Below the pieces are notes generated by a model. The model did not search any database and was not told where the DNA came from. It saw only the letters and a program-made list of their open reading frames with translations. DNA of 64,000 nt from a virus. Its lineage: Duplodnaviria; Heunggongvirae; Uroviricota; Caudoviricetes. Below, piece by piece: positions 47,137 to 60,010 of the stretch. How positions within the stretch are numbered: the stretch's first letter is position 1; each line of letters starts with the position of its first letter. The translations under genes were made by a program, and so were the position numbers. The stretch is taken from the IMG/VR virus record IMGVR_UViG_3300037488_002392; one strand, given 5' to 3'.

Positions 47137-47457
47137 ATGTACAGACAGAGTAAGCAGGACAAAATAGCCAAGGATGTGAAGAAACTGGTGTTGGGCAAGT
47201 CTCGTTATCATGATGGGAATTGGAGTTTTGCGGGGTTCAAGGTTACGAAAACTAAGTCAAAAGTAAGGAAACCTTTAATTGATATTAAGACAAGCAAGGG
47301 AGAGCGTGGTGCTACCAATATCAGTATTGACTATCCAGATTCATGGCGTAATCCTTTTAAAAAGAAATCTCCTGCAAAGAAGGCTATCAGGATAAAGGTT
47401 AAGAACAAGGCTGACTTCATAGTCGATAGTAAGGGCAACGTCAGAAGGAATATATAA
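47137..47457 (+). CDS. Small basic protein.
   Basis: First ORF after the promoter. K/R-rich, 106 aa. Confidence 0.5.
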   Translation: MYRQSKQDKIAKDVKKLVLGKSRYHDGNWSFAGFKVTKTKSKVRKPLIDIKTSKGERGATNISIDYPDSWRNPFKKKSPAKKAIRIKVKNKADFIVDSKGNVRRNI

Positions 47458-47482
47458 TAAAGGATATAGAAGGAGAAAGAAA

Positions 47483-47653
47483 ATGGCAGTAAAAAAGAAG
47501 GTTTGTAAGAAGAAGGGAAGTTGGAATAGTGTTGTAGTAGGACATACCAAAGAGGTTACTGATATAATGGAAAAAAAGTTTAGAAAAGAAGGCAGGTTTG
47601 TCAAAAGGGTAGGAAGGACTATAACTTATAAAGAGAAAGATAGAAAATGGTAA
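47483..47653 (+). CDS. Small basic protein of 56 aa (MAVKKKVCKKKGSW...).
   Basis: AAGGAGAAAGAAAATG context. Confidence 0.55.
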   Translation: MAVKKKVCKKKGSWNSVVVGHTKEVTDIMEKKFRKEGRFVKRVGRTITYKEKDRKW

Positions 47654-47667
47654 TAAGGAGAAAGAAA

Positions 47668-47922
47668 ATGACGGTTAAAAAGAGTTACACTTTGACACCC
47701 AAGGCAATATGGGACAAGGCGTGTAAGTATGATAAAATTCCTACGGGTTCAAAGTTCGTGGTATTCAGCCCCAAGAACCCTTGGGCAAAAGAATATGATA
47801 AAGCCATGAAAATGGTTGGAACAGCACACAAACACGGGTTAATGGACGTTAGTAACTGGTCAAAGGTAAAAAAGGCGGGGGAGTGGGGGAAAAGGAAGGC
47901 TTGCACAAAGAAAAAGAAATAA
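47668..47922 (+). CDS. Small basic protein of 84 aa.
   Basis: AAGGAGAAAGAAAATG context, identical to the previous gene's RBS. Confidence 0.6.
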   Translation: MTVKKSYTLTPKAIWDKACKYDKIPTGSKFVVFSPKNPWAKEYDKAMKMVGTAHKHGLMDVSNWSKVKKAGEWGKRKACTKKKK

Positions 47923-47936
47923 AGGAGATTAGTTAT

Positions 47937-48179
47937 ATGAAGTATGTAGCTTATAAAGGAACACCTTACGAGAAGAAGGTAATAATCCCAGAGAAAAAGA
48001 AGTTTGGAAGCCAAAGTTATGAGTTAGCTGATGTATTTGATAATTATGGTAGGCATCAGTTCCATGAGACGGCTATACGCTTTGCAGAACATGTCAGGTA
48101 TTATCGGGGTAATAACGCAAGGGTGGTAGCAAGTTCAGGTTTTACGGCTGTTTATGCAGGTAACAAGAAAAAGAAATAA
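47937..48179 (+). CDS. Small basic protein of 80 aa.
   Basis: AAAGGAG SD. Ends in ...GNKKKK. Confidence 0.55.
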   Translation: MKYVAYKGTPYEKKVIIPEKKKFGSQSYELADVFDNYGRHQFHETAIRFAEHVRYYRGNNARVVASSGFTAVYAGNKKKK

Positions 48180-48202
48180 AGGATATACAGGAGAATAATA
48201 AG

Positions 48203-48337
48203 ATGGCAGTAAAACAGAAAAACCCGTGGGACGGCAAGAAGCCCAAGAAAAGCATTGACTCATACCCCAATCCCTTCAAGAAAATGGGGGGATTGCCATC
48301 CAACCCTTGGAAGAAAAAGGCTAAGAAAGATAAATAA
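48203..48337 (+). CDS. Small basic protein of 44 aa.
   Basis: CAGGAGAATAATAAGATG. NPW repeats and a K-rich tail. Confidence 0.45.
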   Translation: MAVKQKNPWDGKKPKKSIDSYPNPFKKMGGLPSNPWKKKAKKDK

Positions 48338-48369
48338 TTATTATAAAATAATTTTGCAGGAGAAATAAT

Positions 48370-48645
48370 ATGACAACACAACCAAGGTCAGAACCGATTC
48401 CAGTCCGCACTATGATGATGCCGAACCCCGCAGAGGTGCTGCCAATGTACGAATGTAAGTTCTGTGGTAATCAGTGGATACCCCGAAAGAACGTGCCCAA
48501 GGTGTGCCCGTCATGCCACAGAAAAAAATGGTGGACAGGCGATGTTCGCATAGAACATAGGGAAGCTAATATTGGAATAGCGAGAGTGCGTCCTGCAACT
48601 ACGGTAAGGAAGAGGGTTGTTAAAAGGACACCAAGGGGTAAGTAA
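48370..48645 (+). CDS. Zinc-ribbon small basic protein.
   Basis: CAGGAG SD. CKFC...CPSC. Confidence 0.6.
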   Translation: MTTQPRSEPIPVRTMMMPNPAEVLPMYECKFCGNQWIPRKNVPKVCPSCHRKKWWTGDVRIEHREANIGIARVRPATTVRKRVVKRTPRGK

Positions 48646-49317
48646 ATGGAAAGTGGCGACCAATCTCAGATAGTTGATTCCAAAGGTAGGCATCGTGGTC
48701 TGAAGCAATGGGTCATTTGCCCATCTTGTGAAGTTGGTAGGTGGCAAAGGATAGACCACGTAAAGACTACTGCTCATACTGGTTTTTGCCAAAAGTGCCA
48801 TAATAAATATCGCACTTTACATATGGAAGAACATGGTAGCTGGAAAGGTGGACGAGTTGTCAGGAAAGATGGTTATATAGATGTCCATCTTGCCAAAGAC
48901 GACCCCTTCTATCCAATGACAAGAGTAGATGGGTATATCCGTGAACATAGGCTTGTTATGGCACGCCATTTGGGGAGATGCTTATTCTCTTGGGAAGTAG
49001 TGCGTCACCTTAATGGCAACAGGAGCGATAATAGGATAGAGAATCTCCAGTTACTGAGTAATAAAAATACTCATATGCCATCAATGGTTGTGCAGGCTAC
49101 TATAAAAAGGATGCAAAAGAAGATTGATACCCTAGAGGGGCAATTGATTGAGGCTCATAGGCAACTTAAAACTGAAGGCTATGAGATAATATCAGAAGCT
49201 GAAGACATAATAGAGTCTAAGAGCCAAAAGATTAAACATTATGATAATTCCAAGCAACAAGGTGTCCAATATACTTTGTGGCAACAGGGTAGAGAAACAA
49301 ACGGATACTTAGTATAA
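48646..49317 (+). CDS. HNH endonuclease (homing-endonuclease type).
   Basis: Zn-ribbon N-terminus (CPSC...CQKCH). The HNH motif HRLVMARHLGR...VVRHLNGNRSDNRIENLQLL. Confidence 0.7.
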   Translation: MESGDQSQIVDSKGRHRGLKQWVICPSCEVGRWQRIDHVKTTAHTGFCQKCHNKYRTLHMEEHGSWKGGRVVRKDGYIDVHLAKDDPFYPMTRVDGYIREHRLVMARHLGRCLFSWEVVRHLNGNRSDNRIENLQLLSNKNTHMPSMVVQATIKRMQKKIDTLEGQLIEAHRQLKTEGYEIISEAEDIIESKSQKIKHYDNSKQQGVQYTLWQQGRETNGYLV

Positions 49318-58384: not shown

Positions 58385-58399
58385 AGAAGGGGTAATGTA

Positions 58400-58624
58400 A
58401 TGATTAAGAAGAAGAATGTGGTTCGCAAACCAGTTCGCAGCAGGAAGGGTCGTTGGGATAATAAAGAACGTTATAATCCGTATGGAAAACGCTGCAAGAC
58501 GTGTGGTAAGACGTTCTATGACTACTCAATAGTTACAGGCAAAAGAGAGCAAGTGAATTGTGGTAAGTGTAGGGAAAATGCGTGTATCAAGAGAACTGGA
58601 CACAAACCTAATCAGTATAGATAG
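58400..58624 (+). CDS. Zinc-ribbon small basic protein.
   Basis: CKTCGK...CGKCREN.C. Confidence 0.55.
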   Translation: MIKKKNVVRKPVRSRKGRWDNKERYNPYGKRCKTCGKTFYDYSIVTGKREQVNCGKCRENACIKRTGHKPNQYR

Positions 58625-58653
58625 TAGAATAGATATATAGGAGAATGAATAGA

Positions 58654-58935
58654 ATGTTAAAGAAAAAGAAATGTGCAACAAAGAAGGCTGGGTGGGCAAT
58701 AGAATATCCAGGCAGGTGGGGAACAGATAGAGACAGAAAAGATAAATTGATAGTTGGTGACGCTAAAATGAAGTTGGTTAAAAAGCTTAACCATGCTAAA
58801 TCACCTAAAGGTGTAGAGTTAGCAGCCAAGCAATACCATTCAGTGATAAATAAGGCATTCAAAGGAAGGAAGAAGCCTTATTACACAACGTATTATACGG
58901 AGTTTACAAATGGTAGGGGCAGTAAGCCAATATAA
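58654..58935 (+). CDS. Small basic protein (MLKKKKCATKKAGWA family).
   Basis: TAGGAG SD 10 nt upstream. Family B. Confidence 0.55.
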   Translation: MLKKKKCATKKAGWAIEYPGRWGTDRDRKDKLIVGDAKMKLVKKLNHAKSPKGVELAAKQYHSVINKAFKGRKKPYYTTYYTEFTNGRGSKPI

Positions 58936-58950
58936 TGAAGGAGTGATGAA

Positions 58951-59208
58951 ATGTTAAAGAAAAAGAAATGTGCAACAAAACGTGGTAAGTGGTCAGCGGA
59001 ATATAAAGTAAAACTATCCGTTAACCCTGTAAAGAGGAAGAAGAAGGGAAGTTGGGGAACAGACGATGATAAGGGTCATGCTTGGAAAGTAGTGATTGCT
59101 GGCAAAGATTCGGGTATAGTTGAAAGCAATTATCCTTATGCATCAAAGTATTGGGAGAAGCGAGCCAAGATACTTAATAAGAAAATAAAATTACAGAAGA
59201 TTTGGTAG
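58951..59208 (+). CDS. Small basic protein (MLKKKKCATKRGKWS family).
   Basis: Family B. KKGSWGTDDD motif. Confidence 0.6.
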   Translation: MLKKKKCATKRGKWSAEYKVKLSVNPVKRKKKGSWGTDDDKGHAWKVVIAGKDSGIVESNYPYASKYWEKRAKILNKKIKLQKIW

Positions 59209-59209
59209 A

Positions 59210-59491
59210 ATGAAAACAGGCACTGGCAAATATAGGGAATCCTATGAAAAGAGGGCAAAGCTAATGAATATGCTCAAGCCCTATGGTATATCAAAGTATC
59301 AACTACAGGCTTTACATAATCCCGCAAAAGGTACCGTGAAGATGCATAAAGCCCGTAGGGGAGACACTCATGTTGTGCCCCTTTTCGTATCATTTAATAA
59401 AGCCAAGGTATTTGAATATAGAGGAAGGCTCTATGATGCAAGTAAAATGCCTGCTTCAAAGAGAAGCCAGATAATGAGGTTAATGGAATGA
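59210..59491 (+). CDS. Small basic protein.
   Basis: ORF adjacent to the previous stop. Confidence 0.5.
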   Translation: MKTGTGKYRESYEKRAKLMNMLKPYGISKYQLQALHNPAKGTVKMHKARRGDTHVVPLFVSFNKAKVFEYRGRLYDASKMPASKRSQIMRLME

Positions 59492-59808
59492 AGTTACACA
59501 TAAAAAAAGAATATTTTAAGAACATTAGGAGGGGTAAAGAGCCATGCAAATATGTTGCTACACAACCCCAAGGGGTGAACTCCGATGTCTATGCTACTAT
59601 CAAGCTCGACCCAATCCTCAGAAAAAAGAAGTTAAAACCGATATTAAAAGGAATGTTGAAACACGAGAAAGTCGAGATAACAAGATGGGGGAAGGGTGAT
59701 AGGTACAGTCACAGAGACGCTGAAAAGCAGGAGCCAGCGATTACTCGTGATAAAATCAAAAATGTGAGCGGATTTTGGAAATATTGTAAAGATAAGGGTA
59801 TCAAGTAG
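59488..59808 (+). CDS. Small basic protein.
   Basis: ATGA overlap with the previous gene. Confidence 0.5.
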   Translation: MKLHIKKEYFKNIRRGKEPCKYVATQPQGVNSDVYATIKLDPILRKKKLKPILKGMLKHEKVEITRWGKGDRYSHRDAEKQEPAITRDKIKNVSGFWKYCKDKGIK

Positions 59809-59830
59809 TAATATAATAAGGAGAATTGAA

Positions 59831-60010
59831 ATGACTGATTTTAAAAAGTTGGTACTGGGCAATGCAGGCAAAAAGAGGGAGCCGAATCCTTTGAAGAAGG
59901 GTAAGCGCAAGAAGAAGGGTGCTTGGGGAACTCCAGAAGAGGAGGGCATGCCCCGCAAGAAGAAGCCCTCTGAAGGCAATCTCTACGTAGATGTCTCAAA
60001 TTGGTTCTGA
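59831..60010 (+). CDS. Small basic protein of 59 aa (KKGAWGTPEEEG motif).
   Basis: AAGGAGAATTGAAATG. Confidence 0.5.
   Translation: MTDFKKLVLGNAGKKREPNPLKKGKRKKKGAWGTPEEEGMPRKKKPSEGNLYVDVSNWF

Follow-up and report, generated by a model that had tools for sequence, protein, structure and literature searches.

An array of small genes occupies positions 47137 to 60010 of a 64,000-nucleotide stretch of DNA (hereafter, the window) from a tailed virus (Duplodnaviria; Heunggongvirae; Uroviricota; Caudoviricetes), IMG/VR record IMGVR_UViG_3300037488_002392. The array consists of 42 genes, all on the plus strand, with products of 44–255 amino acids (aa; median 87, after start correction), a coding density of 96% and intergenic gaps of −4 to 66 nucleotides (nt; median 12). 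A first-pass annotation of the window, made from the sequence alone, had reported a dense plus-strand array of about 43 tiny genes; the open reading frames (ORFs) lie where it placed them and the array is real, with the number becoming 42 on recount. Four starts were moved (47647 to 47668, 47883 to 47934, 54331 to 54445 and 55118 to 55169): those at 54445 and 55169 are backed by homologues, that at 47668 was placed after a verbatim Shine–Dalgarno (SD) string and that at 47934 was set from the position of the SD. One gene (54927–55130) was added to the map. The simplest reading of the layout is that 47137–60010 is probably a single 13-kb transcription unit.

47137..60010, plus strand: operon, 42 small genes in a compact one-direction run
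47066..47094, plus strand: sigma70-like promoter, TTGACA-17-TATATT, 11/12 match, 42 nt 5' of the first gene; a consensus match, not proof
60020..60046, plus strand: weak hairpin and T-run just 3' of the last stop, not called by the terminator scan; a possible end of the transcription unit

The site at 47066 has the highest score in a 17-kb promoter scan, in which promoter-like sites overall are not above shuffle expectation; the terminator scan called no plus-strand terminator within the array, and scans of the window for Rfam families and tRNAs were negative. A strong SD had been ascribed to every gene of the array; AGGAG-class sites precede 25 of the 42, compared with 9 of the 26 remaining genes of the window. 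The string AAGGAGAAAGAAAATG, which had been noted as recurring verbatim, is present in exactly three copies (47470, 47655 and 49608), with none in 100 shuffles. The gap is 12 nt or less in 22 of 41 cases, so that the SD of the next gene overlaps the last codons of the preceding one (for example, ..AAA AGG AGA AAG TAG).

The isoelectric point (pI) exceeds 9 in 38 of the 42 products (median 10.2; mean Lys content 18%). When 12 residues are trimmed from each end, the median pI is still 10.0, with 90% of the values above 9, so the charge is not restricted to the termini. The net charge summed over the array is +544, and no product contains a transmembrane (TM)-like segment. In four orthologous gene pairs compared with the related contigs L001 and L002, the ratio of nonsynonymous to synonymous substitution rates (dN/dS) is 0.04–0.11, with synonymous sites near saturation. 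Together with the SD sites, the tight coupling and the core gene order retained in the more divergent relatives L021 and L023, these values mark the array genes as genuine; their products are soluble and strongly cationic.

The Lys richness does not stem from base composition. At four-fold degenerate sites, the array and the large structural genes of the phage have equal purine fractions (0.515 and 0.508), whereas at codon positions 1 and 2 taken together the array is richer in purine than the structural genes (0.649 versus 0.587); this pattern indicates selection for Lys at the protein level. A purine-rich mutational bias, considered as the source, is rejected by the four-fold sites, and the array is native to this genome by codon usage. 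For comparison, the arrays beside distant homologues of the gene at 55169 in two huge-phage contigs (L003 and L005) have a median pI of 6.3–6.6 and 7% Lys, and the host-takeover module of phage SPO1 has a median pI of 5.2 (14% above 9) and 6.8% Lys; the minus-strand genes at 34–46 kb of the window are ordinary in composition.

Terminal arms and the bodies that carry them

The first-pass annotation had grouped many of these genes into paralog families, with a common C-terminus in Family A and a common N-terminus in Family B. Both terminal motifs are as it described them; the paralogy did not hold up in an all-versus-all BLASTP comparison, in which the matches inside the two families span only 22–41 terminal residues. 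Whole-domain paralogy is limited to two pairs (genes are named by their starts), 51717/52400 (N-terminal domain, 8e-13) and 55617/56908 (1.5e-14). By sequence comparison, then, the ‘families’ are two short, lineage-specific polybasic terminal arms attached to otherwise unrelated proteins, not gene families. What the arms have in common is a basic run plus G-x-W-[GSANK], which occurs 16 times in 15 proteins; in residue shuffles, G-x-W-[GSANK] occurs 1.4 ± 1.2 times (maximum, 6 in 2000). None of the 18 minus-strand genes at 34–46 kb contains it, and G-x-W motifs number 0–2 in the L003 and L005 arrays.

The C-tail follows the pattern G-[TSK]-[WF]-x-K-(basic, 6–20 aa)-[KR]-[AV]-[SG]-[KR]-[CI]-x-stop, with the canonical form GTW.K.K.KKVRAK(A/V)SKCR and the variant GTFAKK.VAKK.CK(K/R)RK, both ending at the stop codon. 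The N-arm follows M-[LI]-K-K-K-K-(x)-C-..-T-K-[KR]-G-K-W-[SA]; its full form, about 37 aa in total, continues as ..EYKVKVSV.P.K.KKKG.WG. In both arms the G-x-W/F hinge separates the body from the basic segment, and the order of the motif is thus mirrored at the two ends. Of the 42 genes, about 19 carry the element: 10 as a C-tail, 6 as an N-arm and 3 at an internal position. Short DNA repeats, D1 and D4, cover the SD, the start or stop, and the arm; no intergenic stem-loops are present, and the repeats found are SD-start-arm or tail-stop-SD segments. The C-tail genes are as follows (each tail is given up to the stop codon).

47668..47922, plus strand: C-tail gene, tail GEWGKRKACTKKKK, by motif
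49621..49884, plus strand: C-tail gene, short tail KKKKSGTWSKTNKRRK, by motif
53310..53645, plus strand: C-tail gene with a Cys-rich body, KKGTFAKKGITRAVSSVRAHKSKRKSCKRK; orthologues in L015 and L023
53898..54164, plus strand: C-tail gene, KKKSGTFAKKRVAKKSCKKRK; DNA repeat D4, 82% identity to the 54167 tail
54167..54442, plus strand: C-tail gene, KKKKGTFAKEKVAKKTCKRRK; body unrelated to 53898, BLASTP similarity only in residues 67–91
54927..55130, plus strand: small gene with a degenerate tail, ..GFTSSGKCRG; missing in the relatives L008 and L013
55169..55603, plus strand: alpha/beta body and canonical C-tail, QGTWSKCKKKKVRAKASKCR
55617..56126, plus strand: C-tail gene, Ile variant, GEWGRKYRYIKYREINGKVSRII; paralogue of 56908 by BLASTP
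56128..56895, plus strand: 255-aa HEKYH (HExxH) protein with a degenerate C-tail, NGKWAKAKNGKINQRASRIW; relatives end in ..GKWAVKRMNKCGCKVGKCR
56908..57363, plus strand: C-tail gene, SGTWGNKRKKGHSKVSRIV; orthologue tail GSWGKRKAKRVRAKASKCR

Masking of the tails leaves the C-tail proteins in 10 unrelated BLASTP clusters, with 54167 as an eleventh body. The modularity of the tail is seen at 55169, whose slot in L007, L015 and L018 is occupied by an unrelated protein of 183–185 aa with the same tail; the tail DNA of this protein and that of the 55169 family member in L013 differ by 3 synonymous changes in 57 nt. Among 5.8 billion proteins, the 55169 body has 21 homologues, and the tail is found in the six closest only (at least 73% identity); none of the others has it and most stop at the end of the body. 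The tail is conserved, and the linker that joins it to the body is variable. Among tails on different bodies, the proportion of synonymous differences (pS) is 0.58–0.93, close to saturation, and that of nonsynonymous differences (pN) is 0.04–0.15; the Gly and Lys codons, those of the hinge included, differ among the copies of the motif. A DNA-level repeat as the cause of the motif is ruled out by this codon variation and by the large excess of pS over pN. The presence of the arms on unrelated bodies, together with purifying selection on the peptide, indicates a tag held in common and not a relic of duplication, and we infer from the sequences that the arms serve as a common address tag.

In an AlphaFold2 (AF2) model of 55169, the body has a predicted local distance difference test (pLDDT) score of about 85 and the last ~30 residues (linker and tail) score about 55, with no secondary structure; the 55169 tail, the one tail modelled, is thus predicted to be disordered. 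The Cys of the tail alternates with Ile (SKCR, SRIV, SRII, SRIR, SRIQ), so the position is merely hydrophobic, and a role of this Cys as a lipidation or metal site is rejected on the same grounds. The likeness of KVRAKASKCR to the N-terminus of ribosomal protein bL36 is taken as a coincidence, given that no ribosomal model matched.

The tail-less homologue of the 55169 body in L003 (ENA ERZ25039480 contig_105700, 496,551 bp) is encoded near CbbQ/CobT-like AAA genes, a DNA ligase and ClpS, a typical huge-phage gene content; the body family is thus common to huge phages and the arm is not. The homologue of 55617 follows that of 56908 in L001, L009 and L013, unlike in the window. The largest array protein, 56128–56895, retains its HEKYH signature in a homologue with 73% identity and, on sequence grounds, may be a small metalloprotease with an arm of its own; it has no Pfam, PHROG or PDB match.

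The N-arm genes and those with an internal motif are the following.

47483..47653, plus strand: N-arm gene, MAVKKKVCKKKGSWN.., by motif
50269..50565, plus strand: N-arm gene, MLKKKKTCKRVV..RRRGKWAEE; GKF instead of GKW in the L021 orthologue
58064..58384, plus strand: N-arm gene, MIKKRKCATKKGKWAV.., by BLASTP; DNA repeat D1
58400..58624, plus strand: zinc ribbon (CKTC..CGKC) with an N-arm-like start lacking the Cys, MIKKKNVVRKPVRSRKGRWD
58654..58935, plus strand: N-arm gene, MLKKKKCATKKAGWAIEYPGRWGTD.., by BLASTP; DNA repeats
58951..59208, plus strand: N-arm gene with the full 37-aa arm, MLKKKKCATKRGKWSAEYKVKLSVNPVKRKKKGSWG, by motif
53661..53885, plus strand: internal basic-G-A-W-G motif
57748..58047, plus strand: internal KKRSGGWAEE motif
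59831..60010, plus strand: last gene of the operon, internal KKKGAWGTPEEE motif; 92% identical to its L009 homologue

A profile of the N-arm matched only eight proteins in the same 5.8-billion-protein database. Taking together the window, the related loci and the database, the N-arm is found on 9 different bodies, including three different zinc ribbons and several bodies free of Cys; the arm of 58951 in particular is attached to other bodies in L009, L014, P0027, P0028 and P0031. In three cases it forms a body-less ORF of 34–36 aa (MLKKKGCKKTVKRGKWSMEYNVKVAVTPKKKKRK, then a stop): L023 4266–4370, P0029 and P0030. That in L023 is a complete 34-aa ORF, with its stop codon within the SD of the directly following gene, so the N-arm can exist without a body; those in P0029 and P0030, on contigs of 561 and 797 nt, are putative free-standing copies.

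The five zinc-ribbon members listed by the first-pass annotation (58400 and the first four below) all have the Cys/His patterns, and ligand conservation was found for three of them.

48370..48645, plus strand: zinc ribbon, CKFC-x14-CPSC; Cys kept in L021
50106..50252, plus strand: zinc-ribbon-like, CLQC...CPKGH
54758..54925, plus strand: zinc ribbon, CPAC..CSCC; conserved in L008 and L023
57595..57747, plus strand: Cys/His zinc-binding-like, CFMC..HHIHLGC; 84% identical to its L009 homologue
51717..52181, plus strand: short member of a paralogue pair by BLASTP, helical N-domain, pI 7.9
52400..53128, plus strand: the sole strongly acidic product (pI 4.4, net charge −20), helical N-domain, PVEE repeats, ..KFW C-terminus

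Judged by two CxxC-type knuckles 8–20 residues apart and conserved in orthologues, zinc ribbons are present: 48370 and 58400 have two CxxC knuckles, 54758 has CxxC and CxCC, and the patterns of 50106 and 57595 are variants with Cys and His. Orthologues in L008, L009, L021 or L023 retain the ligands of 48370, 54758 and 57595; no orthologues of 50106 and 58400 were recovered among the relatives. One array product matches the Pfam family Zn_ribbon_4, marginally (E 0.0017). The 51717/52400 pair belongs to a family with only 10 representatives among 1.84 billion proteins. The N-domain of this family is confidently helical, the long form has acidic VEE/PVEE repeats, and the sequence ends in a conserved P-I-x-A-P-M-P...KFW; 52400 is conserved in L021 and L023 and is a candidate hub for the basic arms. 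A match of 52400 to a PHROG annotated as a virion structural protein (E 0.0055) was dropped because it involves only 1 of 12 family members.

Relatives, gene turnover and genomic surroundings

The window is part of a 92.8-kb Joint Genome Institute (JGI) contig, which represents a novel, uncultivated tailed phage without a cultured relative. Neither the region, by nucleotide search, nor five array proteins, by tblastn, had a match in 50,697 phage records, and scans of IMG/VR by protein and by tail pattern found no relative. A scan of metagenome contigs with the back-translated C-tail pattern VRAK[AV]SKCR-stop yielded 12 loci. Nine of these represent the same lineage (GC 0.38–0.41, purine 0.61–0.63, with arrays made almost entirely of ORFs with pI 9–12); the remaining three are chance matches with GC of 0.53–0.63. 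A scan of GTDB genomes with the tail pattern likewise gave a chance hit only (GC 0.69) and therefore provides no clue to the host.

Contigs L001 and L002 have 73–84% DNA identity to 54428–57243. In the stretch shared with L009, the common genes are about 50–90% identical and roughly a third of the genes are replaced; gene order and content vary among close relatives. Two more divergent contigs from other JGI projects, L021 and L023, carry the same kind of basic array. The core set of L021, largely in the same order, comprises 49887, 48370, 50269, 50803, 51717, 52400, a 53661-like gene, 54445, an N-arm gene and 59488.

One gene of the operon stands outside the battery although it is counted among the 42.

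48646..49317, plus strand: inserted HNH homing endonuclease, Pfam HNH_3 (2.9e-10) and PHROG HNH families

This gene is missing from L021. It is one of three homing-endonuclease-type genes in the window, the others being a NUMOD3 gene at 28972–29865 and a 530-aa gene at 60419–62011 (HNH PHROG, weak HTH). The slot of the 530-aa gene is empty in L009, and the next L009 genes have no homologue in the array region of the window (62228 and 62902 were left out of the comparison).

Upstream of the operon lie, in this order, three ORFs, a membrane/SPFH module, a minus-strand island and a 1.2-kb repeat-rich non-coding region. The ORFs start with a 1220-aa DUF2341 protein (11–3673; weak tblastn match, minor tail protein) and a 595-aa fn3 protein (3678–5465), ahead of a plus-strand ORF of 6708 aa (8849–28975) that has no Pfam domain save a sub-threshold apolipoprotein-like coiled stretch and is probably a giant fibre or adhesin. 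The plus-strand cluster of small membrane proteins at 30076–33726 includes an SPFH/Band 7 protein (31583–32464, Pfam 3.9e-29) and may be a lysis or membrane-remodelling module; similar prohibitin-like genes are annotated in many phages. The minus-strand block at 34000–45900 is higher in GC (0.44–0.50) than the rest of the window and differs from it at four-fold sites (C fraction 0.355); it resembles an island gained by horizontal transfer. Its genes include two GHKL/HATPase_c_3-like (38659–40071 and 42501–44249) and one DUF932-like (44807–45865). The 1.2-kb non-coding segment between the island and the operon (45866–47136) contains many GGGTCGG/GGTCAGG motifs, a 21-bp unit repeated about four times (46611–46703) and an inverted repeat of 35 nt (46387–46421 and 46493–46527), and may be an origin or a regulatory region.

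Known systems and the possible role of the arms

Scans of 41 array products against Pfam, PHROGs and NCBIfam gave marginal single matches; sequence searches of the PDB with the N-arm profile, 56128 and 54445 produced nothing meaningful, no fold match was obtained for array products, and literature searches found no described equivalent. The earlier impression of an unusually large battery of Lys-rich miniproteins that corresponds to no described family or phage module therefore stands with respect to Pfam, NCBIfam, PHROGs and PDB. The likeness to ribosomal proteins and protamines holds at the level of composition and goes no further: the same 41 proteins match no ribosomal model (bS21, bL32, bL36 and similar) of Pfam or NCBIfam at E ≤ 0.01, and no family model or solved structure of nucleoid-associated or histone-like proteins (HU, H-NS, Hc1, histone fold) was matched. 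In ribosomal proteins with basic extensions and in histone/H1 tails, a Lys/Arg-rich, disordered, polyanion-binding arm is likewise joined to a globular or zinc-ribbon body; the arms described here differ in being a discrete module that is transferable and has a fixed aromatic hinge.

The closest precedent in logic is that of the T4 internal proteins. The capsid targeting sequence (CTS) of T4 sits at the N-terminus and is cleaved off by the prohead protease. The T4 internal proteins (IPI, IPII, IPIII and the polymorphic IP locus) are also small, Lys-rich and mutually unrelated, are encoded in a variable locus and share a short addressing peptide. Their lysines contact the packaged DNA (PMC3012670). 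The array proteins, too, are small, basic and unrelated apart from the tag, and belong to a polymorphic locus, although they have no sequence similarity to the T4 proteins. T4 has a handful of internal proteins per genome, compared with ~42 genes, ~19 of them tagged, in this operon; and, unlike the CTS, the arm is polybasic, has a G-x-W/F hinge and occurs at either end in mirrored order. An N-terminal segment of ~10 aa ending in L/I-x-E, as in the CTS, is not found: the N-termini are MLKKKKC..GKW or unrelated, and half of the tags are C-terminal.

The turnover of array genes resembles that in the hyperplastic regions of T4-type phages, where runs of small ORFans are gained, lost and replaced and boundary repeats occur, including promoter early stem-loop (PeSL) elements (PMC2839356, PMC4122927); boundary repeats are part of the resemblance. 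PeSLs are non-coding cassettes of a promoter and a stem-loop, of which there are none in the short gaps of the array; in contrast to a PeSL, the repeated boundary element of the array is translated, and selection acts on it as a peptide.

The host-takeover module of SPO1 (gp37–gp60), the archetype of a host-takeover battery, with 28 small genes in 13 kb, is of similar size, and its genes have strong SD sites. It has many internal promoters, two orientations and no shared arm, compared with the one 11/12 site upstream of the array, and no homology to it was detected, the five array proteins being negative by tblastn in the phage collection. Encapsulin cargo-loading peptides and the C-terminal helix of the P22 scaffolding protein, whose coat-binding module is basic, illustrate how a short terminal peptide is thought to suffice for addressing unrelated cargo into an HK97-fold shell. 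The encapsulin consensus is not basic, and the likeness to the arms is an analogy only: the GSLxIGSLKG-like consensus is absent from the arms, and no shell-like Pfam match was found among the window ORFs scanned.

The reading that we tentatively favour, with somewhat less than even confidence, is that the arms are polyanion-binding tethers that would bring effector domains to DNA. Phosphates would be contacted by Lys and Arg of the arm, with the invariant aromatic residue as an anchor, so that the arm would concentrate small, fast-turning-over effector domains (among them the zinc ribbons, the alpha/beta domain and the HExxH protein) on nucleic acid, most probably the DNA of the phage or the host. 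The operon would then be a DNA-addressed host-takeover or counter-defence battery, with the addressing achieved either through co-packaging with the genome or, once the sigma70-like promoter has driven expression, in the cytoplasm. The zinc ribbons, the overall charge, the lack of TM segments and the predicted disorder of the 55169 tail suggest nucleic-acid binders and count in favour of such tethers, and the layout as a single operon behind a strong sigma70-like promoter fits the host-takeover hypothesis, one of the two advanced in the first-pass annotation. Several observations weigh against this interpretation. Apart from the marginal Zn_ribbon_4 hit, the products show no match to DNA- or RNA-binding families in Pfam, NCBIfam or the PDB sequences; the combination of a strict G-x-W/F hinge, a conserved arm and a variable linker is more typical of a motif that docks to a protein partner than of phosphate binding without specificity, and the conserved polyacidic 52400, encoded in the same operon, could be that partner; and promoter-like sites are not enriched overall.

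The modular tag also makes more concrete the other hypothesis of the first-pass annotation, that of DNA-condensing or internal virion proteins, by analogy with T4. The arms would then be a capsid-loading tag, by which the miniproteins are loaded into the prohead or onto packaged DNA and ejected as a first-wave arsenal, with 52400/51717 as a scaffold or hub. This is the main rival, a possible, if on the whole doubtful, explanation: unrelated Lys-rich bodies, a selected short tag and a hyperplastic locus reproduce the T4 logic, a conserved polyacidic protein lies mid-operon and strong SD sites are commoner in the array than elsewhere in the window, but about 40 cargo species would be unprecedented, the tag is not solely N-terminal and has no LxE-type cleavage site, and the mirrored order of the motif argues against a protease site. 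Furthermore, capsid, portal and prohead-protease genes are absent from the window, the layout, with one sigma70-like promoter in front of a single operon, has an early rather than a late look, and the sole link to a virion family is the discarded PHROG match of 52400. RNA- or ribosome-directed miniproteins, in which a ribosomal-protein-like body with a basic extension binds rRNA or mRNA and reprograms translation, would account for the size, pI, zinc ribbons and basic disordered extensions, all of which resemble small ribosomal proteins, and one N-arm zinc-ribbon relative bears the JGI label ‘ribosomal protein L32’; this label fits a generic zinc ribbon only and, with no ribosomal model and no PDB sequence matched, the explanation is unlikely.

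The remaining two alternatives fare worse. The conserved termini might be a by-product of gene-boundary signals (purine-rich SD sites within 3' ends, A-rich 5' codons that favour initiation, and short DNA repeats serving as recombination linkers in cassette exchange) and have no function as peptides. The short gaps with the next SD inside the last codons, the repeats D1 and D4 that cross the SD, start or stop and arm, the near-identical tail DNA behind a swapped body and the variation of gene order and content among close relatives would all be expected, but the conserved tail reaches 57 nt (19 residues) upstream of the stop, well past any SD, and the maintenance of the tail peptide in the face of saturated synonymous sites largely refutes this as a full explanation. 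The hinge codons vary, the protein cores are as basic as the ends and four-fold sites show no purine bias, making a pure by-product quite improbable. Cationic stretches with interfacial Trp or Phe are typical of membrane binders, and the arms could accordingly be imagined to target anionic membranes, in the manner of MinD- and FtsA-type or antimicrobial and cell-penetrating peptides; the hydrophobic positions of ..KVRAKVSKC/I.. appear to recur at i, i+4 and i+7. Given that AF2 predicts no helix in the tail, that hydrophobicity is very low with no TM-like segments, and that zinc-ribbon bodies and basicity of whole proteins fit nucleic-acid binders better, membrane activity is hardly credible.

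A bolder version of the addressing idea, which we consider conceivable but rather improbable, is that the G-x-W/F arms are an undescribed transferable addressing signal, by which one recognition system, either the packaged genome and capsid interior or the polyacidic VEE-repeat protein of the operon as a hub or coacervate scaffold, would gather some 20 or more effector domains, with the payloads swapped by recombination, into a co-delivered arsenal of 40 members. If an address tag is indeed what the arms are, this would be, to our knowledge, the second natural case, after the T4 CTS, of one signal on many unrelated phage miniproteins, and on a scale far above that of T4, with ~19 tagged genes in one operon and, lineage-wide, at least 20 distinct bodies. 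Such a tag would provide a direct handle on where ORFan miniproteins of phages act, show how hyperplastic regions exchange payloads while keeping their targeting, and offer a compact tag of 15–37 aa usable for protein delivery to DNA or capsids. Function aside, the array demonstrates that extreme, operon-wide Lys richness can be the product of selection at the protein level rather than of base composition.

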